Assembly (NCBI GenBank): GCA_046318155.1
Contig: JBKCUU010000093.1
Location: 1-12,753, forward strand
Direction of reading: 5' to 3'
Length of the DNA stretch: 12,753 bases
DNA from: Bdellovibrio sp.
Lineage (GTDB): Bacteria > Bdellovibrionota > Bdellovibrionia > Bdellovibrionales > Bdellovibrionaceae
A program made the position numbers and the translations under genes. Positions 1-12,753 of this stretch are shown here, piece by piece (position 1 is the stretch's first letter; the number at the start of each line of letters is the position of its first letter). The notes beneath the pieces were generated by a model. It did not search any database. It was not told where the DNA came from and saw nothing but the letters and a program-made list of their open reading frames with translations.

Positions 1-2
1 AA

Positions 3-596
3 TTCGGTCAACAGCAGTTTGGCCCTCAACAGTTTGGTCCTGGCCCTTCACTTCCCGGCCAAGGTCAATTCCGTCAACAGCAATTTGGCCAGCAACAGGT
101 TCAGCAGCAACCCGCAAACTGCACGACTTATGCAACCAACCAAGCAAAGTCTTTGATGATCAACGAATTGCAATTCACGACGGGCCCTCAGTTGCGAAAC
201 GCTTTGCTTGAAGCCAACATTGATGGCGACAGCATGTCTTTACAACAGATGTACATGTCGACCTTTCACAATCCCTTGATGAACGTGTGGAATCAAAATT
301 CACAAAACGGAATCAACTGGTCGCAAGCTCAATTGACACCTGGCTTGCAAAATCCTGGACTTCAAACGCCTGGTTTGCAAAACCACGGCGGCCCCGTCCT
401 GCCCGGCACCTATGATGCTCGCAACAACGGGAGCCGCGGAACGCCTGGAATCCCCCAAGCTTTTGGTCAACCCAACCAATACGGAGCCCCTGGCGGCGTC
501 GGTCAACCCAACAATTACCGACCAAACCCACAGACCTTCCCACAAAACAACGGCTTCGCGGCCCCCACCAACAACGGTTTGCGTAGTCGCTTCTAA
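3..596 (+). CDS. 3' part of a low-complexity Q/G/P/N-rich hypothetical protein (5' truncated by the window edge)
   Basis: The frame of ORF 153..596 is open from position 3 (FGQQQFGPQQFGPGPSLPGQGQFRQQQFGQQQVQQQPANCTTYATNQAKSLMINELQF...), so the true start lies upstream. It ends at TAA 594-596 and is followed by a terminator. Confidence 0.85.
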   Translation, partial: FGQQQFGPQQFGPGPSLPGQGQFRQQQFGQQQVQQQPANCTTYATNQAKSLMINELQFTTGPQLRNALLEANIDGDSMSLQQMYMSTFHNPLMNVWNQNSQNGINWSQAQLTPGLQNPGLQTPGLQNHGGPVLPGTYDARNNGSRGTPGIPQAFGQPNQYGAPGGVGQPNNYRPNPQTFPQNNGFAAPTNNGLRSRF

Positions 597-640
597 TTAA
601 AAAAAGTCCTCCACGGACCCAAGGAAGGGCCCGGAAAACC

Positions 641-674
641 AAAAAAGGCACCCCCAAAAAAGGGTGCCTTTTTT
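641..674 (+). terminator. Intrinsic terminator, potentially bidirectional
   Basis: AAAAAAGGCACCC (641-653), an 8-nt loop, then GGGTGCCTTTTTT (662-674): a GC stem flanked by A and T tracts, about 45 bp after the stop codon. Confidence 0.9.
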
Positions 675-709
675 CTTTACAAAATCCCATGGTGCCCGCG
701 GTTCGCGGC

Positions 710-849
710 TCACTCTTGAGTTTAGGCTTAGGAGTTTTCCTTCTGATAGAGACACGGCCCTCCAGGCCTCGCCGCCCCTGAATACCGCATCCTGCGGGGG
801 CGGAGGTCCCCATCAGAAGGAAAACTCCTAAGCCTAAACTCAAGAGTGA
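710..849. repeat. Hairpin element copy 1: perfect 38-bp inverted repeat around a conserved GC-rich core
   Basis: 710-747 TCACTCTTGAGTTTAGGCTTAGGAGTTTTCCTTCTGAT is the exact reverse complement of 812-849. The core 749-810 matches 1001-1062 in inverted orientation. Confidence 0.95.
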
Positions 850-952
850 TGCAAATCCGACTTCGAACGAAAAGCAGTTCCGGGATTTTAGAAATTCAAA
901 AATGATGGGCTTCCGGATCGACTCCGTTAAACTCCGACGTCTTTGAATGCGA

Positions 953-1108
953 GACGCTGATGATCCCGGTTTCCTCTCCTGAACTTCTCTTGAGTAAAAT
1001 GGGACCTCCGCCCCCGCAGGATGCGGTATTCAGGGGCGACGAGGCCTGGAAGGCCGAGTCCCATTTTACTCAAGAGAAGTTCAGGAGAGGAAACCCGGAT
1101 CCAGCGTC
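953..1108. repeat. Hairpin element copy 2 (opposite orientation): perfect 38-bp inverted repeat with an imperfect outer extension
   Basis: 968-1005 GGTTTCCTCTCCTGAACTTCTCTTGAGTAAAATGGGAC is the exact reverse complement of 1058-1095. Pairing extends via GATCC/GGATC (962-966 with 1097-1101) and GACGCTG/CAGCGTC (953-959 with 1102-1108). Confidence 0.95.
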
Positions 1109-1143
1109 CCTCCGAAGGGTCCGGGATTCTCAAAGAAGAGACG

Positions 1144-1173
1144 AAAAAAATCCCGGGGTCTTGCGACCCCGGG
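1144..1173 (-). terminator. Intrinsic terminator of the beta-barrel gene/operon
   Basis: The minus strand reads CCCGGGGTC-GCAA-GACCCCGGG-A-TTTTTTT: a 9-bp stem, GNRA tetraloop and U-tract, about 47 bp after the stop at 1221. Confidence 0.9.
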
Positions 1174-1220
1174 CCCTGCTGACCGCCTCTTGGTGTGTCT
1201 AGCTGCAGATCAAGATGCGA

Positions 1221-2681
1221 TTAAAATGAGATGGCGGCTTTGCTTTGAAATCCGTAAGTAAATCCTGCGTCCCGTCCCACAGAACCTTCTTTGAAGGCCG
1301 ATCCGGGAGAGAACAAACCAATTTCGTTGACCCATTGAACGCGCTCATAGGGGCGATAAACAAGAGCTGTGTCCCACTCAAATCCCAAATCTTTGCTGGT
1401 ATCGCTGTTGAGCACACGTGAAGGGTTTGTTTGAACTTGAGCGTAGGTGAGGGTGTTGCGCCAGTCGAGTTTATCACCAAAGCTGATCGTGAACCGAGGC
1501 GAGAAATAAACTGTGTTGCTGATCGCTTCTTCATCCAGAGCTTCTTCATTGGCGTAAGTCGGGCACGGAACAGTTGTGCAGCTTGCGTCACGATTGCGCT
1601 GAACACGCGAAGTCAGAACGTCATAGCCACCCATCGGGTGATTGAACATCATGAAGGCCACATCATAATTGCGATCCATTTGATAACCTTCGAAGTTATC
1701 GGTCGTCGGATTATCGCCGCTGACCAGGCCCGTTTTCACGAGCCATTTCCAATCTGTTTTTGGAAAATCAAGTTCGAGCGCGATGCCGTAACCATTGATT
1801 TTAATTTCTTGGCCGCCAGCGGTTTTGATACCCGTTGAACCGCTATCAAAACCTGCTTCCATACGAAATTTAAACGAGTCCCAACCACGCATCAGTGTAA
1901 TATTGGTGTGATTGGTCGACCAACCACTAGCTGCGAGTACTGAGGTGTAGGCGGGGTTCACGCCAGAATCAAAAACGTTGTAAGCATCATTCGAAGATTG
2001 CGAGGAGGTGCGTGTTCGGTAGAACAAACCAAAGACCGACTCGGTCTCGGCGTTGTTGTATTGGATATCAAACATAGTGTCGGTGACTTCTCGGCCTTGC
2101 GCTGGCGAGTAGTCGTAGGGCTTACCGATCATGGGCATGATCGAAAGATTTCCGATTAAAAATTTGTAACCGACAAGGTCCTGAATATCGCCCCAGTGAT
2201 CAAAGGCACCTTTGCCGGCGTTGTAACTCATGCCCAAACCAAACTGAAGCGGCGCGCGGCCGACCAAAATCGACCCGTACTCTTGATTGAAGGTGGCGTA
2301 CAACTCACGCACTTGCAGGTTTGAGGAGCCTTGATTCTGCGAAGTGACGTTCGATGAGGTACCGTTCATGTTCGTCGCTGTTCCGGCATTGGCGCCCGAA
2401 CCAAACTGCTGACCCACTTGGGAGTTGGGGTAGTTGGCGTTGCCTAGAACTTCAAAGTTCGCGACGACATGAACACCGTCGGCGGCGATAATCTTGGGCG
2501 AGAGGTTCAAATGGCTGAGCAAGTAAGACTTACGACCGCCGCCCGCACTTAAATTTGTTTTGTCGATTTCGGTGTATTCAAACCGGTACGTTCCGGACCA
2601 ATCAACGGCCATTGCCATCGCGGTTTGAGTCAAAAACAAGGACATTCCAAGAAGAGAAAGCTGCTTTTTCATAGGCCTCAT
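1221..2681 (-). CDS. Outer-membrane beta-barrel protein (alginate-export/TIGR04551-like porin; start may be ATG 2672)
   Basis: Sec signal peptide (MKKQLSLLGMSLFLTQTAMA), many amphipathic aromatic-rich beta strands, a GRxPxxFGLGM segment typical of this barrel group, and a C-terminal Phe (AAISF) consistent with a BAM signal. The family assignment comes from motif recognition only. Confidence 0.8.
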   Translation of the reverse strand: MRPMKKQLSLLGMSLFLTQTAMAMAVDWSGTYRFEYTEIDKTNLSAGGGRKSYLLSHLNLSPKIIAADGVHVVANFEVLGNANYPNSQVGQQFGSGANAGTATNMNGTSSNVTSQNQGSSNLQVRELYATFNQEYGSILVGRAPLQFGLGMSYNAGKGAFDHWGDIQDLVGYKFLIGNLSIMPMIGKPYDYSPAQGREVTDTMFDIQYNNAETESVFGLFYRTRTSSQSSNDAYNVFDSGVNPAYTSVLAASGWSTNHTNITLMRGWDSFKFRMEAGFDSGSTGIKTAGGQEIKINGYGIALELDFPKTDWKWLVKTGLVSGDNPTTDNFEGYQMDRNYDVAFMMFNHPMGGYDVLTSRVQRNRDASCTTVPCPTYANEEALDEEAISNTVYFSPRFTISFGDKLDWRNTLTYAQVQTNPSRVLNSDTSKDLGFEWDTALVYRPYERVQWVNEIGLFSPGSAFKEGSVGRDAGFTYGFQSKAAISF

Positions 2682-2719
2682 TCAAGCATGCGGATTCTGA
2701 AAAAGACAACTCTAAAAAT

Positions 2720-3262
2720 TTATGTTTCAACAATTCCGAGAATGTCGCTCTCTCGCACCACGATGAGGTCTTGGCCAGCCCACGTAATTTTCGAACCCGC
2801 ATGGGCAGCGAACAGAACTTCGTCGCCGACTTGCAGCTCGATCGGATGGATTTTTCCTTTTTTATCGAGATGTCCACGTCCCACGGCAAGAACTTTTGCC
2901 TTGAGATTGCCCGAAAGCTCAGCAGAGTCCGGAATATGAAGACCGCCCGCTGTCATTTTAGGTGCTTCGATGGGCACCAGAACGACGCGATCATCAAGGG
3001 GCGAAATCGATTTGCCCGTGATCATTTTTAGAGTCGGTGTTTTGCTAACTTTTGCAGCCGCTTTGGCTGGAGTCTTCGCGGCTTTGTTGATTGCTTTTTT
3101 CGCCGCGGGCTTCGCCGTCGGTTTCGCAGCTGACTTTTTGGGCGTCGCTTTCGTTTTTACTTTGGCTTTTATTTTGGCTTTTACTGTCGCTTTTACTTTG
3201 TTGCTTTTCTGTGCAACTTTTTTTGCAACTTTTTTGGGTGCAGTCTTCTTAGCCTTGGCCAC
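2720..3262 (-). CDS. groES: Co-chaperonin GroES (Cpn10) paralogue with a Lys/Ala-rich N-terminal extension
   Basis: The C-terminal ~100 aa has GroES motifs: ISPLDDRVVL, mobile loop TAGGLHIPDSA, AVGRG, VGDEVLF, RESDILG. The likely start is GTG at 3262, after a purine-rich AAGAAGAGAG and overlapping the upstream gene's end. An alternative internal ATG at 3025 lacks an SD. Confidence 0.9.
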   Translation of the reverse strand: MAKAKKTAPKKVAKKVAQKSNKVKATVKAKIKAKVKTKATPKKSAAKPTAKPAAKKAINKAAKTPAKAAAKVSKTPTLKMITGKSISPLDDRVVLVPIEAPKMTAGGLHIPDSAELSGNLKAKVLAVGRGHLDKKGKIHPIELQVGDEVLFAAHAGSKITWAGQDLIVVRESDILGIVET

Positions 3263-3524
3263 GTCGATTTCTCTCTTCTTCGTAATATTTACGATACATG
3301 ATGTCCCATTCGGGGCTACCTTCAAGGACGTTTCGCTTTAACGAGGCTACCTTTTCGCGCGCTTTAAGGTCGATGTCAGCATCTTCTTTGACAAATTCGG
3401 CAATCGCTTTTTTAGTTACCCGAAGCGCCATGTCTTCGTCGGTGAAATCAACCAGATCATCGTTATAAACAGCATCGTTAATAAGCAAAGCCAGATGCCC
3501 CTGACGGTCTTCAGAAATGATCAT
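3249..3524 (-). CDS. DUF507-family protein
   Basis: 91-aa helical protein ending ...RNVLEGSPEWDIMYRKYYEEERNRRG, typical of the second DUF507 partner in deltaproteobacterial pairs. It has an ATGA overlap (3521-3524) with the upstream gene. Confidence 0.75.
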   Translation of the reverse strand: MIISEDRQGHLALLINDAVYNDDLVDFTDEDMALRVTKKAIAEFVKEDADIDLKAREKVASLKRNVLEGSPEWDIMYRKYYEEERNRRGQG

Positions 3525-3799
3525 AAAATGATTTTTCTTTCTTTGGCGAGCTTCTGTTTCAGAAGTGGGTACATTTTGTAGCGCTCGAATTGCCCGCCGT
3601 GGCTGCGCTCAAGCTCTTCGAGCATCTTCTGGACGTCTTTTTCGAGAAGGGCTTCTTTATCGTAGTCTTCGCGCACAGCGGCGATCGCCCGCGCGAGCAC
3701 CCGTTTCTCGTCATCTTTAAATTCGACCAGATTGTGGGCCTTCCAGGCCTCGAGAACCTTTTCAGATAATTTTTGGATTTGCAAAGGAGTCAGTCTCAT
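3521..3799 (-). CDS. DUF507-family protein
   Basis: MRLTPLQIQKLSEKVL...YKMYPLLKQKLAKERKIIL, a typical DUF507 pattern. The start is reassigned to ATG 3799 because GGAGG (3810-3814, minus strand) lies 10 nt upstream. Confidence 0.8.
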   Translation of the reverse strand: MRLTPLQIQKLSEKVLEAWKAHNLVEFKDDEKRVLARAIAAVREDYDKEALLEKDVQKMLEELERSHGGQFERYKMYPLLKQKLAKERKIIL

Positions 3800-3849
3800 A
3801 ATTGATGTGCCTCCGTCCCTTCTTTTGACTATTGAAGTGACCCCTTCTA

Positions 3850-6117
3850 ATGTCAAGGGCGATGAAAATGAATCTCAAGAAATGGTTGATCGCGGCGGCG
3901 ACCCTCCTCGCACTGATGTGCATCGTCCTGATCACTTGGGTTTGGAATCTGAATGATGAAGTTCAAGACAAATTGCAGAACCGACGATTTCTTCCTCCCA
4001 CTGAATTTTACACCTCACCACTGGCGATTGGCGCACAAGACCGCTGGACGCGCGACGAGCTTCGCCATGAACTTGTCAGACGTCAGTACCGCGAAAATCC
4101 GCCAGACCGCCCGCTGTCTGCTGGTCAATTTTGGAGTCTCGAAGGCGCCGCGTGCACAGCTTCGATTGGACATCTCGAGAATGTCAGCGAACCTCAATGT
4201 CTGATTTTAAGTCCACAAGAAACGCCCGATCCCGAGTTTGCGCAGCCCGAGATGAAACTCCAAGCCGTAATCTGGAGCGCTGCAGATCCAGCGATTGTGG
4301 CCGCCGCAGCGAGAGCCAATCCACTTCGGCCCGCGGCGCAGGTTTGGCTTGAGCCCGAAGTCTTTGCGCAATACTTAGGCTCAACCCCTGTTTTGCAAAA
4401 TTGGACAAACTTAGGCGACACGCCGTCTTCATGTTTAAATGCCGTGCTGGCCATCGAGGATTCTCAGTTTCTTGAGCATGGCGGCGTCAGCTTTTTGGGA
4501 ATCGGGCGTGCCGCAGCTAAAAATATTTTGCAAGGACGTTTCGCTCAAGGCGGATCAACCATTACCCAGCAAATGGTCAAAAACTTTTTTCTGACTTCGG
4601 AGCGAACTCTCAAGCGAAAAGTCACCGAGATCATGATGTCAATGCTGTTGGAAGCTCATGCAAACAAAGACGAAATTTTTGAAACGTATTTGAATATCAT
4701 CTACATGGGCCAGTCGGGTCCGTTTGAAGTTCGCGGCTTTGGTGCGGCGGCTCGCCATTACTTTAATCAAGATCTTTCTCAATTGGGACTTTCAGAATGC
4801 AGTTTGCTGGCAGCCATTTTAAACTCGCCCGGAAACTTTGACCCCTCACGTAAGCCCGAGGCTGCGCAGAGGCGGCGGGCTCGTGTACTGGAGCGCATGG
4901 CCGAGCTTTCGATGATCTCGCCTGAAGATGCAGCGAGCGCGCAAGCGGCCCCGCTACCCAAGATTCAGCGGCAAACGTTGTGGGAAACGGCGCCTTATTA
5001 TATTCAGGCAGCGCTGTTTACACTCACCCAAGCAGGCTTATCGTCAGAGGGGCTGCAGATCTTTACGGGTCTTAAATCAAGTCACCAAGAGGTGGCGCAA
5101 AAGTCGGTTCAAGGCCAGATCGAGAAACTCGAAAAAGACCATCCCAAGATTAAAGAGATCGCCGCGAAGGGCATTCCACTAGAAGGCCTTTTGCTTTCGA
5201 TGGATTTGAGAAACAACTGGATCACGGCGGCTGTCGGCGGGCGTTCTTTTCGCAAAACTCAGTACAACCGGATCTTAGATGGACACCGCCAAATTGGCAG
5301 CTTGATGAAGCCCTTTGTTTTTTACTCTGCCCTCGAGAATGATCCGTCGCTGAATGCGCTCACGACTATAAAAGATGCGAAGTTTTCGTACAAATACGAA
5401 GGCCAGACTTGGTCGCCCGTTAACTACGGAAGAAAATATGAGGGCGAAGTTCCCATGTACTACGCACTCAAAAAAAGTTTGAACGCCGCCACGGCACAAG
5501 CTGGAATCACGGCGGGACTGCCGCGACTTAAAGATGTGGCTGAACGGGCTGGCAGCACCAGCACGCTGAAGCCCCTTCCTTCGCTAACGCTTGGCGCTTT
5601 CGAATTGTATCCCACCGAAGTTTTGCGCATGTACTCGACGCTTGCGCACTTGGGACAAAAATCGGAGCCCATTTGGGTCAGGTCTGCGCGGTACCCGCAA
5701 GGCAATACGGTTTATACGCCCTCGATTGAATCGTCTGAAGTTTTAGATCCCGTCGTGACCGCTCAGGTCGTAGGGATGATGAAACAAACAACGCAGTCTG
5801 GAACTGCCGCCGCCGTTAAGGCCAGTGGCTTTGATCTTCCCACCGCTGGAAAAACCGGAACAACGTCAGATTCTCGTGATACTTGGTTTGCGGGATTTAC
5901 GCCTCAGCGCTTAACTTTGGCGTGGATTGGATACGATCAAAACGCCTCTCACAATTTGACGGGCGGCTCGGGGACAGTGCCCATCTGGATTGAGTTTATG
6001 AAAAAGGCGACTGAACACGACTCCAAGAAAGACTTCGCCTGGCCCAGTGGCGTTCGTTCCCTCCATGTTCAACCGGCCCTCGAGACGTCAGAAATCGAAC
6101 TCATTTTAAAAAATTGA
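3850..6117 (+). CDS. mrcB: Class A bifunctional penicillin-binding protein (PBP1B-like); start probably ATG 3862 or 3868
   Basis: N-terminal TM anchor and a UB2H-like segment. GT51 motifs EDSQFLEHGG, GGSTITQQMVKN, RKVTE, KDEIFETYLN. Transpeptidase motifs SLMK (SxxK), SLN (SxN), KTG. Confidence 0.9.
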   Translation: MSRAMKMNLKKWLIAAATLLALMCIVLITWVWNLNDEVQDKLQNRRFLPPTEFYTSPLAIGAQDRWTRDELRHELVRRQYRENPPDRPLSAGQFWSLEGAACTASIGHLENVSEPQCLILSPQETPDPEFAQPEMKLQAVIWSAADPAIVAAAARANPLRPAAQVWLEPEVFAQYLGSTPVLQNWTNLGDTPSSCLNAVLAIEDSQFLEHGGVSFLGIGRAAAKNILQGRFAQGGSTITQQMVKNFFLTSERTLKRKVTEIMMSMLLEAHANKDEIFETYLNIIYMGQSGPFEVRGFGAAARHYFNQDLSQLGLSECSLLAAILNSPGNFDPSRKPEAAQRRRARVLERMAELSMISPEDAASAQAAPLPKIQRQTLWETAPYYIQAALFTLTQAGLSSEGLQIFTGLKSSHQEVAQKSVQGQIEKLEKDHPKIKEIAAKGIPLEGLLLSMDLRNNWITAAVGGRSFRKTQYNRILDGHRQIGSLMKPFVFYSALENDPSLNALTTIKDAKFSYKYEGQTWSPVNYGRKYEGEVPMYYALKKSLNAATAQAGITAGLPRLKDVAERAGSTSTLKPLPSLTLGAFELYPTEVLRMYSTLAHLGQKSEPIWVRSARYPQGNTVYTPSIESSEVLDPVVTAQVVGMMKQTTQSGTAAAVKASGFDLPTAGKTGTTSDSRDTWFAGFTPQRLTLAWIGYDQNASHNLTGGSGTVPIWIEFMKKATEHDSKKDFAWPSGVRSLHVQPALETSEIELILKN

Positions 6118-6174
6118 ATGTGAAAAATGAATCCGTTCGGCTTACCGCTGTGGATGGAGTGAAAAATTCAAAAT

Positions 6175-7164
6175 TCAGAGTTTACTCAAATCAAGCTCAA
6201 GACCCTCAAAAGCGAACCGCCAGCGAACCTGGGGCAGCGACACTCGGTTGGTTTCGGCCGTCTTCATGCGCCAGTCGTAATACTCTTTCGTTTGGCGCTT
6301 GAGCTCATAAACATCTTGAGTTGTTGCTCCTGGATCGTGATGCGCAAAAACCAAGTGGCGGATGTTCTCGCGGAATGCGATATCCAAACCAATTTGCGAG
6401 GCCGAGTGGCCCCAGTTTGCTTTTTCGGCAAGCTCTGGGAACGTATACTGGGCATCAAAATACATCATATCAACGCCTTGGTAGAGCGGCAGATCGGGCC
6501 CCAAAGCTTCGCGCGTTGAGCGTGTGCCCTCGGTGTCCACGCAGTGCGCGTAAACACGTCCACCCGACTCGACTCGCAGACCCCAGCAAGGATCTGGATG
6601 ATCAAGCTGATAGGAAGTGATGTTCATATCATCAAGCTTGGCTGTTTGACGTGGCTCAAGCCTATGAAACTTGATTTCAGAAGCGAGCGATTCAAAAGCG
6701 ACTGGGAAATAAGGTCTTTTAAAGACACCGCGAACCATTTCTTCAAGCTCTGGCTGGACCGCATAAACATTCACTTTGTTTCCAGCAATAAAGAGAGGAG
6801 CAAAAAACGGCAAGCCCAAGACATGATCCCAATGAAAATGAGTCAGAAAAATATGGATGTTGGCTTTGCCCTTGGCCGCGGGTCCCTTCATCATCGAATC
6901 ACCGATATTGCGAATGCCGCTTCCGCCATCGATGATCAACTGAGACGCAGCCGACTTCACTTGCACGCTCGTCGTGGCCGTGCCGAATCCGCCAATTTGC
7001 GGAGTCGACATCGTGGCCAGGTATTCTTTAACCTGTTCGGCGCGCGAATAACCTGCTTTAAAAAAGCCCTGGAGAAGACCCTCGAAATCTTTAGCCCACT
7101 GCTCCGGCGAAGGAGAGCTCGGTAAAGATCCTCGGACTCCCCAGTACTTGAGAATCAAGGACAT
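6175..7164 (-). CDS. MBL-fold metallo-hydrolase (RNase Z/phosphodiesterase-like subgroup)
   Basis: WGVRGS N-terminal motif, IIDGGSG, THFHWDH (HxHxDH), LDHP, DTE, DAQY, WGHS, AHHDP. Confidence 0.9.
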   Translation of the reverse strand: MSLILKYWGVRGSLPSSPSPEQWAKDFEGLLQGFFKAGYSRAEQVKEYLATMSTPQIGGFGTATTSVQVKSAASQLIIDGGSGIRNIGDSMMKGPAAKGKANIHIFLTHFHWDHVLGLPFFAPLFIAGNKVNVYAVQPELEEMVRGVFKRPYFPVAFESLASEIKFHRLEPRQTAKLDDMNITSYQLDHPDPCWGLRVESGGRVYAHCVDTEGTRSTREALGPDLPLYQGVDMMYFDAQYTFPELAEKANWGHSASQIGLDIAFRENIRHLVFAHHDPGATTQDVYELKRQTKEYYDWRMKTAETNRVSLPQVRWRFAFEGLELDLSKL

Positions 7165-7337
7165 ACTCCACTTAGAATGTCCGACCTGATCACGACATGC
7201 AATTGCTTTGATCTGAACCCCTTTGTCGGTCGAGAAGCAAGACCATCGTCGTGCCCTAATCCCAATGAACGATCGAACTTAAAAACAAACTCCAGTCGAC
7301 AGGAATTTAAACCGATCAGCTAGAAGGAGGAAACACC

Positions 7338-8684
7338 GTGAGCTATCGCGTTTTGATTGCCGATGATTTTGAAGATATGCGCGAACTTCTCGAATTTGTT
7401 TTCGCGGGTGAAATGGGTTTTAGTACCGTCGTGGTCAATTCGGGCTCTGCCGCGATCGAGGCCTTGAAGCGTGACTCCTCCTTTGACCTCATTTTTACAG
7501 ACCTCAATATGCCCAATGGTTCAGGCTTAGATTTGTTTAAAGCCTACCAGCAGATGAATTTGAAATGCCCTTTTATGGTCCTTTCGAGTGATCGACCTGA
7601 ACAACACCCTTCCCTGCGGGGCCCCAATGTCGATTGGATCAGCAAGCCCTTTGAGGTTTCGGAGATCATTAAACGCGTTAGCAATCTCACGAGTGTTCGG
7701 GAACTTCCAACAGATTCTTATGTACCCGTTTCGCTCAATCTCTTAAAACGCATCGAGCAGATTGAGATTCCACTCTTCGTTCGCATCAACAGTGAGAAGT
7801 ACGTCCGACTCACGAGCGGGGCGACCTACTTTAACGCTGAAGAATTCGAAAAGTACCAAAGTCGTGGATTGCTTTATCTTTACATCGAAGCCGGTATGGC
7901 TGATGAATTCATCGCAGACTACCGAAAAAAAGTTTTGTCTCTAGATGCATGGAAAGAAGTTTGTCCGGGCGACCACGAACTGGTTTCGATTAATACCGAC
8001 CTTCTCAAAAATCTGACGGCTCAATTGGGTTGGGACGACAGCGTGGTCGAACTGGCCAAAGACTCGATTCAGAAAGCCCTTCACTTAGCAAAAAATCATC
8101 CAAGCTTAAATTCCGTTTTTCAGCAGTTTCACAAAATTGAGCGGTACGGTTTTGCAGATCACTGCACGATGACGCTTTTGGTGGCCTGCGGCCTGCTCAA
8201 GAACATGAACTACAACGATGACGTCACCATAGCCAAAATGACTTTCGCTTCAGTGCTTCATGACATGAGCATCACAGATCAAGTTTATGATCAAAAGCCC
8301 AAGCTCATTAAAAAGATCTTGGGTGGTGAAAAGAACAGCCGAGAAACTGAATTGGTTTTTGTGCACACGGTGCGTGCTTCTGAAACATGTGCGAAGTGGG
8401 ATTTTTGTCCACCGGAAGTCGATCAGATTATTCTGTATCACCACGAGAGACCGGATGGGCGCGGGTTTCCGTTTGGCAGAACCGCTGCCGACTTGAGCTT
8501 TCTCTGTTCAGTTTATATCTTAGCCGAGGATATTGCGGACTTCTTTATGGGCTCATTTGGCAAAACTAATTTGCAGGTATTCTTGGACTCTCGCCGTGAC
8601 CTTTACGTGAACGGTCACTTCAAGGGGCTCTTCCGCAGCTTCGAGAGCGCTGCTCAACATCGAATCAAGTCAGACGCCGCCTAA
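7338..8684 (+). CDS. Response regulator with N-terminal REC and C-terminal HD-GYP-like domain
   Basis: GGAGG SD at 7326-7330 before GTG. REC motifs IADD, IFTDLNMP (phosphoacceptor D), ISKPF. C-terminal VLHD and HHERPDGRGFP. Confidence 0.88.
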   Translation: MSYRVLIADDFEDMRELLEFVFAGEMGFSTVVVNSGSAAIEALKRDSSFDLIFTDLNMPNGSGLDLFKAYQQMNLKCPFMVLSSDRPEQHPSLRGPNVDWISKPFEVSEIIKRVSNLTSVRELPTDSYVPVSLNLLKRIEQIEIPLFVRINSEKYVRLTSGATYFNAEEFEKYQSRGLLYLYIEAGMADEFIADYRKKVLSLDAWKEVCPGDHELVSINTDLLKNLTAQLGWDDSVVELAKDSIQKALHLAKNHPSLNSVFQQFHKIERYGFADHCTMTLLVACGLLKNMNYNDDVTIAKMTFASVLHDMSITDQVYDQKPKLIKKILGGEKNSRETELVFVHTVRASETCAKWDFCPPEVDQIILYHHERPDGRGFPFGRTAADLSFLCSVYILAEDIADFFMGSFGKTNLQVFLDSRRDLYVNGHFKGLFRSFESAAQHRIKSDAA

Positions 8685-8719
8685 ACGGCGTTCGACACTT
8701 GTCGCCGCCTAAACGGCGT
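8675..8719. repeat. 17-bp direct repeat of a small hairpin at the convergent gene junction
   Basis: CGCCGCCTAAACGGCGT occurs at 8675-8691 and 8703-8719; each copy is a CGCCG-N6-CGGCG hairpin. Confidence 0.85.
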
Positions 8720-8996
8720 CGTAATCAACGACCAGGCGGGTGCAATTTTTTTTGATTCGAGATTGGCACGTCTGAATGAGTTTTTGACCTGAGCTTGGAT
8801 CAACTGTATCTCCGCCAACCACGTCTTCAACTTCACCACTGACGACAACCGCCGTGCACGACGAGCAGATCCCCTCCAGACAGGAGTAAGGCGCCGGAAT
8901 TGAGTTTCTCAGTGCACAATCCAGAATCGTTTCATTTTCGCCAGTCTGCACAACACGTGTCGTTCCGCCGGCTCGAAATTCGATCTCGGATTTCAT
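8709..8996 (-). CDS. 2Fe-2S ferredoxin (plant-type fold)
   Basis: ETILDCAL, PYSCLEGICSSC (Cx4Cx2C) and a distal TC ligand; 95 aa. Confidence 0.92.
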   Translation of the reverse strand: MKSEIEFRAGGTTRVVQTGENETILDCALRNSIPAPYSCLEGICSSCTAVVVSGEVEDVVGGDTVDPSSGQKLIQTCQSRIKKNCTRLVVDYDAV

Positions 8997-9061
8997 TGGC
9001 CTGTTTTCTTATCAAAAAAACAATGTGAGGTCATCTTGGCTCCCTTTTGCGTGAAAGCTCA

Positions 9062-9089
9062 TTGACTGTTTTTTAATCAGTCCTACAGT
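9062..9089 (+). promoter_or_regulatory. Candidate sigma70 promoter for the rSAM operon with an overlapping inverted repeat
   Basis: TTGACT (9062-9067), 16 bp, then TACAGT (9084-9089), in an AT-rich divergent intergenic region. A GACTG-N9-CAGTC palindrome (9064-9082) overlaps it. Confidence 0.35.
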
Positions 9090-9241
9090 ATTTTCAGATT
9101 AAGCCGTTCAAAACGGCTCTTCTTCTATATCCAACCATCAGAACCCGACCTGGAAACTAACTATATGTCATTTAACGCACGAGGTGCAAAACGCACCAGG
9201 CTTTTTTCTTGCAGTTGTCAGGGGGTTGGTAGCTTGGAGCC

Positions 9242-10567
9242 ATGATGACACTTATGAACGAAGCGAGACAAATCGAAGACCTGCACCTGATCCGTCGCCC
9301 CAGTGGCGACGTGGTGGCTTTTCATGCTCGCAACATGCAGGTGGCTCGTCTTTCACATGAATCTTGGATGGCGCTAGATCATGCCGAAACCAAAAGTGAG
9401 GCGCTACAAGCTTTGCTGGATTGGAATTTGAGCGAGAGCCCCGACGTTTTACGCGAAAAGCGCGAAACAGGTGTGCGGGCACTCACGATCAACGTGACGC
9501 AAGTGTGCAACTTGCATTGCAAGTACTGCGCAGCTGGCGGCGATGGTTCGTTCGGCGATCCCGTTAAAAAAATCATCGTGGCCGATACGCTTCCGGCCTT
9601 ACAATCATTCATCGCCAAGGTACCCAAAGGTGAGTCCTTCCGCCTGACATTTTTAGGCGGCGAACCTTTGCTGTACCCTGAAGGCATCCAGCTCCTGGCC
9701 GAAGAGGCGCAGCGTTTAGGCGCTGAACACGGAATTCAAGTTGATTTTACCGTTGTGACCAATGGCACTTTGTTTTCTGAGAAAAACATCGAGCTGCTCA
9801 AGCGTTTTAAAATGGACATAACCGTGAGTATCGATGGCCCGGTCTTGGTGAATGACGTTCGTCGCCCCACCAAAGGGGGCCGAGGTGTGACCGAGATGGT
9901 TGTCGAAGGCTTGGGGCGTTTGCTGCCGCAGAAATTGCATCTCGGAACAGTCATGCTTTCGGGCGTTTTTGGAAAGGGCAACTTGGATTTGATGACGGCC
10001 TACCAGTTTTACCGGCAGTTTGATGTCGACTGGTTTGATTTTACCTACGACCACCACGAATCCAGCCCTGAGATTAACCGCGAATTTATGCGCGAAATAG
10101 GCAAAGTCGCGGCTCACGCCTATGAAACCGAAGGTGAAGTGGGGCTCCGCCGCATTCACACTTTTGACCGTCTGATTGTCGCGCTCGACAATCAACAACA
10201 GATCGAAAATTACTGCGGCGCTGGAAAATCATTCTTGATGATGGATGCTCGGCAAAACCTCTACACCTGCCCCTGGGTTGTGAATGAGCCCAAAGAAGTC
10301 GTCGGACATGTTGGAAATATCTGGGAGGACAAGCTCAAAGCTTATGAAGCTCCCCTGATCGAGAAAAACGGCTGCCAGGACTGCTGGTCGCGGTTTCTGT
10401 GCGGCGGCGGATGCATGTACATTCACCGTCAAGCCACGGGCGATAAGCACCGCGTGGATCAAAATTACTGTGATCGAACCCGGTTCTTGATTGAACAAAC
10501 ACTTCTGTACTATGAAAATATGAGGGCGTATGAAAAAGGTGAAGGCAATGGATCAAGCAATGACTGA
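9242..10567 (+). CDS. Radical SAM/SPASM peptide maturase (SCIFF/CteB ranthisynthase-like) with a short RRE-like N-terminus
   Basis: CNLHCKYC (CxxxCxxC), FLGGEPLL, VTNGTL, VSIDG. The SPASM region has 7 Cys: CGAG-...-YTCP, Cx2Cx5Cx3C (CQDCWSRFLCGGGC), then x18-C. The N-terminal pattern of three beta strands then a helix (LHLIRR/VVAFHARN/QVARLSHESWMAL) resembles an RRE. Confidence 0.92.
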   Translation: MMTLMNEARQIEDLHLIRRPSGDVVAFHARNMQVARLSHESWMALDHAETKSEALQALLDWNLSESPDVLREKRETGVRALTINVTQVCNLHCKYCAAGGDGSFGDPVKKIIVADTLPALQSFIAKVPKGESFRLTFLGGEPLLYPEGIQLLAEEAQRLGAEHGIQVDFTVVTNGTLFSEKNIELLKRFKMDITVSIDGPVLVNDVRRPTKGGRGVTEMVVEGLGRLLPQKLHLGTVMLSGVFGKGNLDLMTAYQFYRQFDVDWFDFTYDHHESSPEINREFMREIGKVAAHAYETEGEVGLRRIHTFDRLIVALDNQQQIENYCGAGKSFLMMDARQNLYTCPWVVNEPKEVVGHVGNIWEDKLKAYEAPLIEKNGCQDCWSRFLCGGGCMYIHRQATGDKHRVDQNYCDRTRFLIEQTLLYYENMRAYEKGEGNGSSND

Positions 10568-10697
10568 CGTGACACCAAAAAACACAGAAAAAACGACAGA
10601 AAACAAGACCAAAAAAGCTCACGTCACCCTGGTTAAGCCCATGAAAATCATGGGCCGAGATCCTGGAGTTGGATGCCGCCCTACCGGCGTGCAATGA
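10548..10697 (+). CDS. Unannotated 49-aa peptide, putative RiPP precursor: MDQAMTDVTPKNTEKTTENKTKKAHVTLVKPMKIMGRDPGVGCRPTGVQ
   Basis: Translated by hand. SD-like AAGGTGA (10536-10542) lies 5 nt before ATG 10548. The ORF overlaps the rSAM 3' end by 20 nt, and its TGA (10695-10697) forms an ATGA overlap with the kinase ATG at 10694, exactly filling the intergenic gap. Confidence 0.8.
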   Translation: MDQAMTDVTPKNTEKTTENKTKKAHVTLVKPMKIMGRDPGVGCRPTGVQ

Positions 10698-12580
10698 ACG
10701 AAGAGAGTAAAAAGACCCCATGGGCGACCCTGCTCATGAGGGCCGCCTTCGCACTGGCATTTAGTTTTGTACTGGTTCAGCTCAAACTGGATTTCTTGGA
10801 GTCTTATCTTTTTGACCTTCGATTTCGCCTGAGACCCGTCTCGACAGTCTCCGAAAATGTTGAAATCATTCTCGTCGACCAGAAAACGGTTGAGCACTTT
10901 AAACGCATTCCTGGATTTGAAGATCATATCGCCGTCCTGAAAACTCTATTGGCGCAAAATCCAAAAGCAGTTGTCTACGTCACCCCCCTGATTAAATCGG
11001 GCGAATCAGAAGAAGAAGAGGGCCGCGCACTCGCAGCCCCCCAGGGCACACCCGAAAAAGCCCGCGAACTCAGTGAGCTCCTGGCCAGTTCGGGCCGCGT
11101 TTACCAAATGACCGATCGACTGTTTTTAAAAGGCGAAAGCGGACAAAACAAACTCCCGGCTCCGTTTGAAAAAGTCCCACTTCTCGCGGGTCCTAAAACG
11201 GCGGATCTGAACCTGTTTGCCAAAGATGGCGTCACCCGCCGGGTGCTGATTGATTACCAAGGCGAGCCGCTCGGGCATGCGCAGCTGGCGGCTGAGTTTA
11301 ACCCCGAAATCAAGGATCTCAAAAACCTCAAGGGTCAGTTCGAGGTTTACGAGACCAATCAACTCTTTATCGATTTTCAGCGGGGTGGCTCGTTTCAGAC
11401 GACCAAGTTTGAGGACTTCATTCGCCAGTCGATCGATCCCAAGCGTTTTGAAGGCAAACTGATTTTGATCGGTGATGACCTTGGCAAATCGCTCAAAAGT
11501 TATGTTCGTACGCCATACTCACGCGATCCCTCGGCGATGACCCTCGTCGAAATGCAAGCCAACATGTTCGACACGTTCATTCGTAACTCAGCCCCAAGGC
11601 AGGCGCCTGCTTGGATGGATTTGCTCCTCACTGGATTGATTTCAGTTTTTACCGTGCATGTTGTTCTGACCTTAAGGCCTTTAAGAGGGATGGGCCTCCT
11701 CTTGATCGCCGGCGGCTTACTCACGCTGGTGGGGTATATCAGCTTTTGGCCCTTTAAGATTATGCTCCCTATGGCGCACCCCTATTTGGCGATTTTCCTG
11801 TGTTACTACTTTTTTATTCCCTACCGCTTGATCGTCGAGAATCGCCGCAGCTGGGAGTATCAACAAAAAAACCGCCTGCTGAGCCAAGTGGAAGAACTCA
11901 AAACAAATTTTATCTCGATGATGAGCCACGACTTAAGAACGCCGATCGCGCGCATTCAAGGCATGACCGAAGTGATCTTGAAAGACACGGTCACACTCAG
12001 TAGCGGCCAACGTGAAGCCTTGGACCATATCCGATCCAGTAACGAAGATCTCCTTCGCTTTATCAATTCGATTCTGAACTACGCGCGGATCGAGAGCCAA
12101 GGTGTGGAGCTGCATTGTCAGGATCGAGACATCAACGCCATCTTGGAAGAAGTCGTCAAAAAGCACGAGTTCTTGGCGAAGGTAAAGCACATCCAACTGA
12201 TGACCGAATGCGAGCCGCTGTTTCCGATTCAGGTCGATCCTGATTTGATCCGCCAGGTGTTTTCAAACTTGGTCGAAAACGCGATCAAGTACAGTCCCGA
12301 AAATTCGAAGGTACTGATCACGTCTGAAGAGGTGACTGGAGGCTTCGTGCGCGTGCAAGTTTCGGATCAAGGCGATGGCATCCCGGCCGAAGATCTGCCA
12401 CATATTTTCATGAAATTTTTTCGTAGCCGGGCGGCCAAATCGTCACCCATCAAGGGCTCCGGCCTCGGACTTTACCTAGCCCAATATTTTATCCAGCTGC
12501 ATAAGGGCTCGATATCAGTGGAGTCTTCGCTAGGACAGGGCTCCACTTTCGCGGTGGATCTGCCGCTCCGTCAGACTTAA
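10694..12580 (+). CDS. CHASE2-domain sensor histidine kinase
   Basis: N-terminal TM, CHASE2-like region (LFDLRFRLRP, IILVDQKT, DGVTRR, GKLILIG), then 3 TM helices. HisKA H-box SHDLRTP; HATPase NLVENAIKY, DQGDG, GSGLGL. The start is placed at 10694 (ATGA overlap); 10673 is an alternative. Confidence 0.92.
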   Translation: MNEESKKTPWATLLMRAAFALAFSFVLVQLKLDFLESYLFDLRFRLRPVSTVSENVEIILVDQKTVEHFKRIPGFEDHIAVLKTLLAQNPKAVVYVTPLIKSGESEEEEGRALAAPQGTPEKARELSELLASSGRVYQMTDRLFLKGESGQNKLPAPFEKVPLLAGPKTADLNLFAKDGVTRRVLIDYQGEPLGHAQLAAEFNPEIKDLKNLKGQFEVYETNQLFIDFQRGGSFQTTKFEDFIRQSIDPKRFEGKLILIGDDLGKSLKSYVRTPYSRDPSAMTLVEMQANMFDTFIRNSAPRQAPAWMDLLLTGLISVFTVHVVLTLRPLRGMGLLLIAGGLLTLVGYISFWPFKIMLPMAHPYLAIFLCYYFFIPYRLIVENRRSWEYQQKNRLLSQVEELKTNFISMMSHDLRTPIARIQGMTEVILKDTVTLSSGQREALDHIRSSNEDLLRFINSILNYARIESQGVELHCQDRDINAILEEVVKKHEFLAKVKHIQLMTECEPLFPIQVDPDLIRQVFSNLVENAIKYSPENSKVLITSEEVTGGFVRVQVSDQGDGIPAEDLPHIFMKFFRSRAAKSSPIKGSGLGLYLAQYFIQLHKGSISVESSLGQGSTFAVDLPLRQT

Positions 12581-12701
12581 TCCGTCAGATTTGAGCCCTC
12601 AGCTTTCTCCCGACAACCTTAACCGGCTTGAGAATTCATGAAAGATATGAGAGACATGACGCGGGGTATTACTGTTTTACGTCTGCCTGGGTGGAGGTTC
12701 C

Positions 12702-12753
12702 ATGATTCGTATTCTTGTTGCTGATGACGATCAAGGTCTGCGGCTGTCGGTCA
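12702..12753 (+). CDS. N-terminus of a response regulator (REC domain), 3' truncated
   Basis: GGAGG at 12693-12697, then ATG 12702: MIRILVADDDQGLRLSV..., the classic first strand and acidic pocket of a receiver domain. Confidence 0.85.
   Translation, partial: MIRILVADDDQGLRLSV

Follow-up and report, generated by a model that had tools for sequence, protein, structure and literature searches.

A single-cysteine peptide gene between a radical SAM/SPASM enzyme and a CHASE2 kinase in Bdellovibrio: a probable RiPP precursor and candidate kinase signal

What is encoded in the short interval between a radical S-adenosylmethionine (rSAM) enzyme and a membrane histidine kinase in Bdellovibrio, and what might its product do? 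The question is raised by a 12,753-nucleotide stretch of Bdellovibrio sp. DNA (contig JBKCUU010000093.1, positions 1 to 12,753; hereafter the window), in which an initial annotation had proposed a 49-residue single-cysteine peptide as the substrate of the adjacent rSAM/SPASM enzyme, that is, as the precursor of a peptide made on the ribosome and modified after its translation (RiPP). The explanation that, taken as a whole, we narrowly favour is that this is a RiPP precursor ringed by the rSAM enzyme, which acts as the signal of the CHASE2 kinase in a self-amplifying circuit. The features with which the argument begins are these:

9242..10567, forward strand: rSAM/SPASM maturase, 441 amino acids (aa), recognised from family models, invariant cysteines and a structure model
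10548..10697, forward strand: precursor peptide, 49 aa (55 aa from 10530), recognised from translation, conservation, and codon and profile tests
10620..10640, forward strand: leader motif H25-P31, a predicted strand binding the RiPP recognition element (RRE); His in 61/72 and Pro in 53/72 peptides
10674..10688, forward strand: core C43-R44-P45-T46-G47, predicted from conservation as a single-thioether site (C-x-P-x-[G/R] in the family)

Translation of 10548-10697 on the forward strand gives the 49 residues quoted in the initial annotation, including KKAHVTLVKPMKIM, with C43 as the sole cysteine and with D38 and T46. The open reading frame (ORF) shares 20 nt with the end of the rSAM gene (stop at 10567) and its 3' end overlaps the kinase start in an ATGA at 10694-10697, while an AAGGTG resembling a Shine-Dalgarno (SD) sequence lies 5' of 10548 and is also present in a locus of the same genus (L002); the claim of an ORF with its own SD and overlaps at both ends is thus borne out. 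Because an alternative in-frame ATG at 10530 (55 aa, with GAGG) is also conserved, and both the 49-aa and the 55-aa forms are present in public protein sets, the start may be either 10548 or 10530. When the gap downstream of the enzyme was translated in 70 orthologous genome loci (L001-L030 and L110-L149, the window's own genome counted), the peptide was found after the rSAM gene in 69, the exception (L028) having a leader readable as far as the contig end, where it is cut. All 26 held-out metagenome orthologue loci having downstream DNA, some of them near-duplicates, likewise have the peptide, five further loci that run off their contigs standing outside this count. The conserved small ORF expected beside orthologous rSAM genes is therefore present in both samples.

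A fixed rule combining the leader with C-x-P is matched by 54 of the 69 real gaps as against 11 of 6,900 shuffled gaps, which argues that the ORF is not a product of chance. In the leader and core codons the window and L002 differ by 9 synonymous and 0 non-synonymous codons, and pairwise comparison of the motif codons in nine genomes of genus g10 shows 212 synonymous versus 51 non-synonymous differences. A peptide profile search recovered 51 representatives at E values up to 0.001, 50 of them short proteins, and all 48 that were inspected are of this same form. B. bacteriovorus HD100 has a 38-aa family member in public records (Q6MI21/CAE78161), and the gene that had been called hidden is not hidden everywhere, the HD100 annotation carrying Bd3358 as a hypothetical protein. 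That the ORF is a real gene is virtually certain. The window genome (G000) contains no second copy of it. Two tandem precursor genes with differing cores stand behind one enzyme at L009:2794-3063 and likewise at L145:4160-4425. A further 49 metagenome rSAM loci, more remote at 23-35% identity, have neither the kinase nor this peptide above the noise of the hidden Markov model (HMM), and the search of genome contigs for related loci yielded only 3 true orthologues among 79.

The anatomy of the family was derived from 72 peptides, collected by a Cys/Pro rule and an eye check, with one spurious candidate removed and those of L030 and L150 added by hand. They share a layout of a variable N-terminal tail, an H[IV]KK[VI]KP leader, a linker of free length, the C-x-P-x core and a tail, with 17-47 residues between the leader His and the Cys. 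The window leader is a diverged HVTLVKP with a His-to-Cys spacing of 18, and the motifs LVKP and GxGC(R)P suggested earlier give way at the family level to H[IV]KK[VI]KP and C-x-P. A single Cys is present in 71/72 peptides, in agreement with the expectation that it would be conserved; Pro stands at +2 in 65/72 (and in 23/26 held-out peptides) and at +1 or +2 in 70/72, and at least three residues follow the Cys in all 72. Comparison of the peptides with NCBIfam, Pfam and the PDB found no family (0/68 match NCBIfam and no SCIFF model was matched), and a search of the ESM Atlas gave no usable match. By inspection, and short of an HMM-level match, the leader resembles the MKH[IV]K of SCIFF peptides. 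The available portion of the Precord 2023 precursor table (PMC10288494) contains MKHIK 675 times and MKHVK 322 times (997 occurrences), and the rows displayed from these matches belong to the thermocellin class with the first Cys at residue 21; the same portion contains neither HIKKIKP, HIKKVKP and GCIPVR nor any accession tried.

The maturase opens with a reduced, RRE-like segment (residues about 7-63; four strands and two helices in the model), followed by the rSAM motif CX3CX2C (C89, C93, C96) and seven SPASM cysteines (325, 343, 378, 381, 387, 391, 410). These ten cysteines are invariant over 59 maturase sequences, with no eighth SPASM Cys before C325. Orthologues were found in 33/36 and 34/35 genomes of the same family, in 5/18 genomes of family f6 of the order and, outside the order, in 3 genomes of a sample of 301; the named close orthologues belong to the Bdellovibrionaceae / Pseudobdellovibrionaceae. 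None of the 25 listed NCBIfam cut-offs is reached, the top model being that of PapB (NF047865, 161.7 bits, cut-off 340), with 121.9 bits for TIGR03974 (cut-off 425; 128-203 in three relatives). The solved protein nearest by sequence is CteB (E 1e-26, compared with 4.5e-5 for the anaerobic sulfatase-maturating enzyme, anSME), and the structure model (pLDDT 93) matches CteB 5WGG with Z 37.0 and a root-mean-square deviation of 2.8 over 397 residues (model range 12-428), a whole-chain match that takes in the N-terminal domain; after CteB and ChlB, the next fold match is anSME at Z 31. According to the parts available of two reports (PMC6231123, PMC8326336), the seven-cysteine SPASM domain of CteB leaves auxiliary cluster I (Aux I) open, and Cys21 of CteA is seen there; the cysteine pattern of the maturase predicts the same open site. 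It is very probable that the peptide is the substrate of this enzyme, and the earlier proposal, a precursor next to an rSAM/SPASM enzyme of the CteB/PapB kind whose N-terminus is RRE-like, is supported by conservation and by the CteB match.

Two properties of the enzyme weigh on the other side. Taken in isolation, its N-terminal domain matches RREs weakly (CteB Z 3.7, lasso B1 Z 3.4, TbiB1 E 0.14), and its active-site loop reads C-P-W, without His363 of CteB. Of the active-site residues that Precord et al. compare, six in number, the maturase has A,L,T,S,P,W where CteB has F,F,T,S,H,Q; since the His after the cluster Cys is absent, the chemistry is not transferable from CteB and may differ. 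A charge covariation between strand 3 of the RRE and the leader was weak (Glu33/Lys 53, 8, 2, 4, with related sequences not independent and one row mis-parsed) and was not used. In L136, L138-L140, L143, L183 and L187 the cores have Pro at +1 (C-P-E, C-P-V, C-P-S) or lack Pro, and the enzymes read N-W or A-W in place of P-W after the cluster Cys; as some C-x-P loci read likewise, this link may be driven by clade.

Comparison with characterised systems places the pair closest to SCIFF/thermocellin (CteA, CteB; PDB 5WGG, 5WHY), which provides the best sequence and fold match, N-terminal domain included, a seven-Cys SPASM domain, an MKH[IV]K-type leader and possibly an i+2 acceptor register. The SCIFF spacing from His3 to Cys21, 18 residues, equals that of the window peptide, the family minimum being 17. 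Nevertheless, SCIFF peptides have six cysteines and a C-K-T core as opposed to one cysteine and C-x-P-x here, and the present enzymes lie below the TIGR03974 cut-off, differ in active-site profile and are encoded in a kinase-activator operon. A likeness to the ranthisynthase systems PapA/PapB (freyrasin) and QhpD lies in the top NCBIfam score and in a Glu at +2 in the C-P-E subgroup, but the PapB score is below 340 bits, there is no CX3D motif (Asp at +4 in 2/72) and no acidic acceptor is conserved. Streptosactin (GggB) and QmpB offer a four-residue Calpha ring that would suit the variable +3 residue; against this likeness, NF050038 gives 54 of 650 bits and the peptides have one Cys and a Gram-negative host. 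The anSMEs (PDB 4K36-4K39) share the SPASM fold, and their C-x-P-x-R signature has look-alikes in 16/72 peptides, but anSME is without an RRE and has a fully ligated Aux I, and its catalytic residues are absent here. On these sequence grounds the peptide family is not a member of SCIFF, freyrasin or anSME, and its placement outside SCIFF and the CX3D pattern, in no named family, agrees with what had been proposed.

Which cross-link, then, would be installed? Two reviews (PMC8326336 and PMC8172795) report that CteA is linked from Cys32 to Cgamma of Thr34 in E. coli and from Cys32 to Thr37 in vitro, and the acceptors of CteB and PapB lie C-terminal to the Cys. An acceptor on that side could stand only at +1 to +3, because the shortest tails end there. 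Among 81 distinct cores, an sp3 gamma C-H is present at +2 in 79 (the residues other than Pro being mostly Glu, Val or Ile) and at +3 in 65; the remaining 16 have none at +3, where the Calpha is common to all. In a coarse sampling of ring closure (900,000 conformers per model), the thermocellin control closed without clashes 5 times; Pro Cgamma did so 10 times, Pro Cdelta 13 times, and Calpha at +3 once with a trans and 22 times with a cis bond. Pro Cbeta, with 0 clash-free closures in 1.8 million conformers, is the only option that geometry excludes, and since the counts allow both Pro Cgamma/Cdelta and Calpha at +3, they do not separate the two leading options. That Cys43 is closed into a thioether ring is probable. 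A bond from its sulfur to Pro45 (Cgamma or Cdelta, in the i+2 register of thermocellin) is the likeliest single link, though at less than even odds, one to the Calpha of the +3 residue across the Pro turn is rather unlikely, and an acceptor N-terminal to Cys43 is improbable. A different chemistry at Cys43, or none, is somewhat doubtful. A proline acceptor is not listed among the acceptors in the available parts of the reviews examined.

The invariance of the Cys also bears on a reading in which the Cys itself is oxidised, as by an anSME, to a thioaldehyde or formylglycine or by desaturation, with no cross-link. The Cys is the sole invariant residue, the C-x-P-x-R form resembles the sulfatase signature and the anSME fold is matched, but the Arg is not conserved (Gly in its place in 34/72), the eighth SPASM Cys is missing, Ala98 and Pro344 occupy in the alignment the positions of anSME Tyr24 and Asp277, and TIGR03942 scores 81 of 349 bits; we consider such oxidation quite improbable. 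A streptosactin-type, sactionine-like ring toward the N-terminus, to a Gly at -3 or a small residue at -1, is geometrically allowed and would accord with Gly at -3 in 41/72 and Gly/Ala/Ser at -1 in 58/72 peptides, GggB and QmpB being sactisynthases near the ranthisynthases. It is nonetheless very unlikely, given that position -3 is Pro or bulky in 31/72, that conservation is stronger on the C-terminal side and that the known CteB and PapB acceptors lie on that side. The ranthionine of the initial annotation, which would join Cys43 either to Asp38 or to Thr46 at its gamma carbon, fares worst and is highly unlikely: both residues are present in the window peptide, but Asp occurs at -5 in 3/72 and Thr at +3 in 14/72, 16 of the 81 distinct cores offer no gamma C-H at +3, and it is the Pro at +2 that is conserved.

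The genes around the pair extend the question from chemistry to function, and require the remaining features of the operon:

9027..9043, forward strand: weak match to a palindromic enhancer-like element (consensus about GG[GT]GTCA-N3-TGAC[AC]CC); the two window matches score 11.3 and 9.9 with the position weight matrix
9182-9198: second weak palindrome match, abutting the promoter (scores as above)
9199..9213, forward strand: sigma54-type -24/-12 promoter, GG-N8-TTGCA, recognised from family-wide conservation of the box
10694..12580, forward strand: membrane histidine kinase with an N-terminal transmembrane helix, periplasmic CHASE2 domain, further transmembrane helices, HisKA and HATPase, from domain reading
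12702..12753, forward strand: start of a sigma54-dependent response regulator (REC-AAA-HTH), continuing on contig C89 (60783-59248)

Nearly all of the long loci show the order rSAM enzyme, peptide, CHASE2 kinase and sigma54 response regulator, after which come a gene of unknown function, ileS and lspA. GG-N8-TTGC precedes 61 of 69 rSAM genes, versus 840 of 13,800 shuffles (6%); the reverse strand gives 3 of 69. RpoN is encoded in the genome. The palindrome clusters near -100, with 36 of 52 non-redundant promoters scoring above 8 and 30 of these 36 at -125 to -45; as the expectation-maximisation motif was seeded from the data and its shuffle control is therefore biased, position and the loci lacking the rSAM gene were relied upon. 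It is present in 9 of the 11 enzyme-less kinase loci having a sigma54 box and, since it stays where the enzyme is missing, appears to be tied to the regulator; binding by the regulator, and hence autoregulation, is likely from the sequence. A site resembling that of integration host factor lies near -50 in 12/52 promoters by a strict match, as against 1% in shuffles.

The HD100 copy of the operon fits, by size and order, the tabulated genes Bd3357 (labelled 'heme biosynthesis', 1,284 nt), Bd3358 (117 nt), Bd3359 (kinase) and Bd3360 (ZraR-like). In the part available of PMC2797640, the 30 min predation-specific set shows Bd3357 1.6-fold, Bd3358 2.0-2.2-fold, Bd3359 2.1-2.2-fold and Bd3360 3.0-fold up, and the part available of PMC3627812 gives increases of 28-fold (Bd3357), 19-fold (Bd3359) and 17.5-fold (Bd3360) at 3 h. 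In the open-access and bioRxiv literature we found no paper naming Bd3357 or Bd3358, with Bd3359 and Bd3360 appearing in passing. The initial annotation had overlooked that the leader is SCIFF-like, that a sigma54 promoter precedes the unit and that a kinase and a sigma54 activator are coupled to it.

Is the kinase then the receptor of the peptide? In a comparison of 48 loci, confined to pairs whose kinase cores share 90% identity or more, CHASE2 identity is 76% in 46 pairs with the same peptide core versus 39-45% in 22 pairs with different cores, the pairs not being independent. L161 and L152 are 72-91% identical in flanks and regulator and 93% in the kinase core, as against 51% in the rSAM enzyme and 41% in CHASE2, and differ in peptide core type. 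The kinase core and regulator of L161 and L264 place them among the CIPVR-type loci, whereas their enzymes place them with the CxPLG-type loci and their CHASE2 domains outside the CIPVR group; approximately unbiased (AU) tests reject the alternatives with p of 2e-61, 6e-6 and 0.001. The exchange is bounded on both sides, with a break just after the membrane helices and with the upstream genes unswapped, and the sequences indicate one joint exchange of the enzyme, the peptide and the sensor domain. L161 and L264 themselves are 98% identical in the regulator, 97% in the kinase core, 88% in the enzyme and 60% in CHASE2, and their peptide cores differ at two positions; the CHASE2 divergence is possibly an incipient change of specificity.

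The co-variation and the swap suggest, with reasonable likelihood, that the modified peptide is the ligand of the CHASE2 kinase. The facts that pull away from this conclusion, and from the circuit as a whole, are several. The swap is a single event that involves neighbouring DNA, and the data had been seen before the groups were named. Among 42 genomes probed (two positive controls excluded), 17 scattered over the tree lack the enzyme although the orthologous pair of kinase and regulator is there and the DNA upstream of it is intact. In four of the 17 the kinase stands directly behind the sigma54 box with no room for a peptide, and a further nine are without an SD-led peptide (one with a box, eight without a convincing one). 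As these enzyme-less loci include peptide-less ones, the kinase can work without the peptide. The Cys-free peptides of enzyme-less loci retain a Pro too, so the Pro may serve the receptor or a turn and not act as acceptor. Bd3358 has only 3 reads at 3 h and is not significant after correction in the part available of PMC3627812. Regarding export, no transporter or protease gene is conserved near the operon in the orthologous loci, no C39 peptidase (PF03412) was found in G000, which is 95% complete (other routes were not searched), and the peptides show no hydrophobic signal-like stretch. A lipobox reading of the cysteine region (x-A/G-C, beside lspA/lgt) was rejected, there being no hydrophobic h-region.

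Several of these facts would fit a reading in which the enzyme-peptide pair is a mere output of the two-component system, a modified peptide with a job of its own at prey entry that was placed behind an autoregulated sigma54 promoter, while the kinase responds to another stimulus: the 17 enzyme-less loci retain kinase, activator, promoter and enhancer, 13 of them without a recognisable peptide, and export machinery is not linked. Against it, CHASE2 identity falls with peptide core type at equal kinase-core identity, in the non-independent pairs described above; the swap is bounded on both sides; and in family f10 Cys-free peptides remain beside the kinase. We therefore regard the output reading as unlikely, if worth keeping in view, and prefer the peptide as kinase signal.

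The remaining four of the 17 enzyme-less loci have an SD-led Cys-free ORF of 25-44 aa, and in family f10, from which one of these four comes, all 6 kinase loci have a Cys-free ORF of 27-37 aa that is rich in Lys, preceded by an SD and terminated by P-x-[DE]-x-x; five f10 genomes added to the analysis contain no enzyme orthologue (best 52 bits; two of these genomes are 71-82% complete). Such ORFs lie between the sigma54 box and the kinase in L292, L322-L326 (f10), L290 and L286, and are candidate unmodified peptide signals. G014, of the same family as the window and 99% complete, is without the enzyme and has at L274:2733-2861 (reverse strand) a 42-aa Cys-free ORF before the kinase, with two NGxG...KPPF repeats; a word search found no homologue of it, and G014 has no genus mate. 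We read this as an old, autoregulated unit of kinase and activator that is often accompanied by a small basic peptide; in the Bdellovibrionaceae this peptide carries a Cys and an rSAM modifier.

The preferred mechanism can be set out accordingly as a proposal. A sigma54 promoter would drive rSAM enzyme, peptide, CHASE2 kinase and sigma54 activator as one unit. The leader would pair with the RRE-like sheet, Cys43 would bind the auxiliary cluster at its open iron, in the way that CteA binds in CteB, and an acceptor within three residues on its C-terminal side would complete one small Cys thioether ring. The trimmed core would reach the periplasm and would with reasonable likelihood bind CHASE2, whereupon the sigma54 activator would re-induce the whole operon in a positive loop with specificity types, the enzyme being a lineage-specific add-on to the older autoregulated kinase-activator unit. 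Pheromone cassettes with the order enzyme, peptide, membrane kinase and regulator are known from agrBDCA of Staphylococcus and comQXPA of Bacillus. The present operon resembles them in gene order, in likely autoregulation and in the joint variation and movement of enzyme, peptide and sensor half against a conserved kinase core and regulator. Unlike them, it has no homology to these cassettes, combines an rSAM enzyme, a CHASE2 sensor and a sigma54 enhancer-binding regulator in a diderm cell, has no identified exporter or protease, and includes a kinase that also occurs without a peptide. By analogy, the operon is likely to work as a ranthipeptide or short-ring sactipeptide pair in an agr/comQXPA layout. 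The fullest version, a type-specific pheromone with a radical Cys-to-Pro thioether that is the CHASE2 kinase ligand and controls a sigma54 programme inside prey, with an unmodified Cys-free peptide serving receptors of the same family in sister lineages, is speculative and on present evidence unlikely.

Several observations lie to the side of this argument. Outside the order, L150 (G066) has an enzyme at 1550-2971 (reverse strand, 22% identity) with a C-H-R active-site loop and a peptide at 1510-1629 (reverse strand) with the same leader and a C-S-W core; promoter and palindrome are kept, and a CHASE2 gene lies 1.1 kb downstream, with a nucleotidyltransferase-like ORF between and multiheme cytochrome genes nearby. 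Unrelated rSAM/SPASM loci have small Cys-tailed ORFs of their own (L202, L233; L218, L220, L222, L227; L214; L241), among them Nif11-like ones whose tail ends LCS(C/G)G and ones with a tail ending CGGIGCG. Seven other palindrome-plus-sigma54 matches in G000 (C98, C64, C50, C47, C58, C20, C88) are possible regulon members. Whether or not the enzyme is there, most loci have a conserved 194-aa gene without a Pfam family after the regulator (L031:15139-15720 and orthologues). In the window, a 7-bp hairpin with a weak T tail lies 5' of the promoter (9102-9118), and 12600-12753 and the overlapping end of contig C89 differ at several bases of the kinase-regulator spacer, which may reflect strain mixture or assembly noise. 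Also in the window, on the reverse strand, DUF507 is encoded as two adjacent genes for its N and C halves (3249-3524 and 3521-3856), split in relatives too, and a GroES-domain protein (2720-3325) has a long Lys/Ala-rich, histone-like N-terminal extension kept in relatives.

To our knowledge, no ligand class has been established for CHASE2, and our search of the open-access and bioRxiv literature turned up no report of peptide signalling in these predators. If the fullest version is true, it would add a new cross-link, the first CHASE2 ligand class and agr-like signalling in a Gram-negative predator. For a CteB-like enzyme whose C-P-W loop is unusual, the peptide would be a minimal substrate with a single ring, its conserved partner being a proline, and the natural variants, namely the core types, the swapped module and the Cys-free and peptide-less loci, are ready specificity controls. 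As the operon is nearly universal in the family, is induced by prey and is present in the tractable HD100 (Bd3357-3360), the proposal is directly testable, and it bears on how a Bdellovibrio cell might recognise the interior of its prey or the presence of kin.

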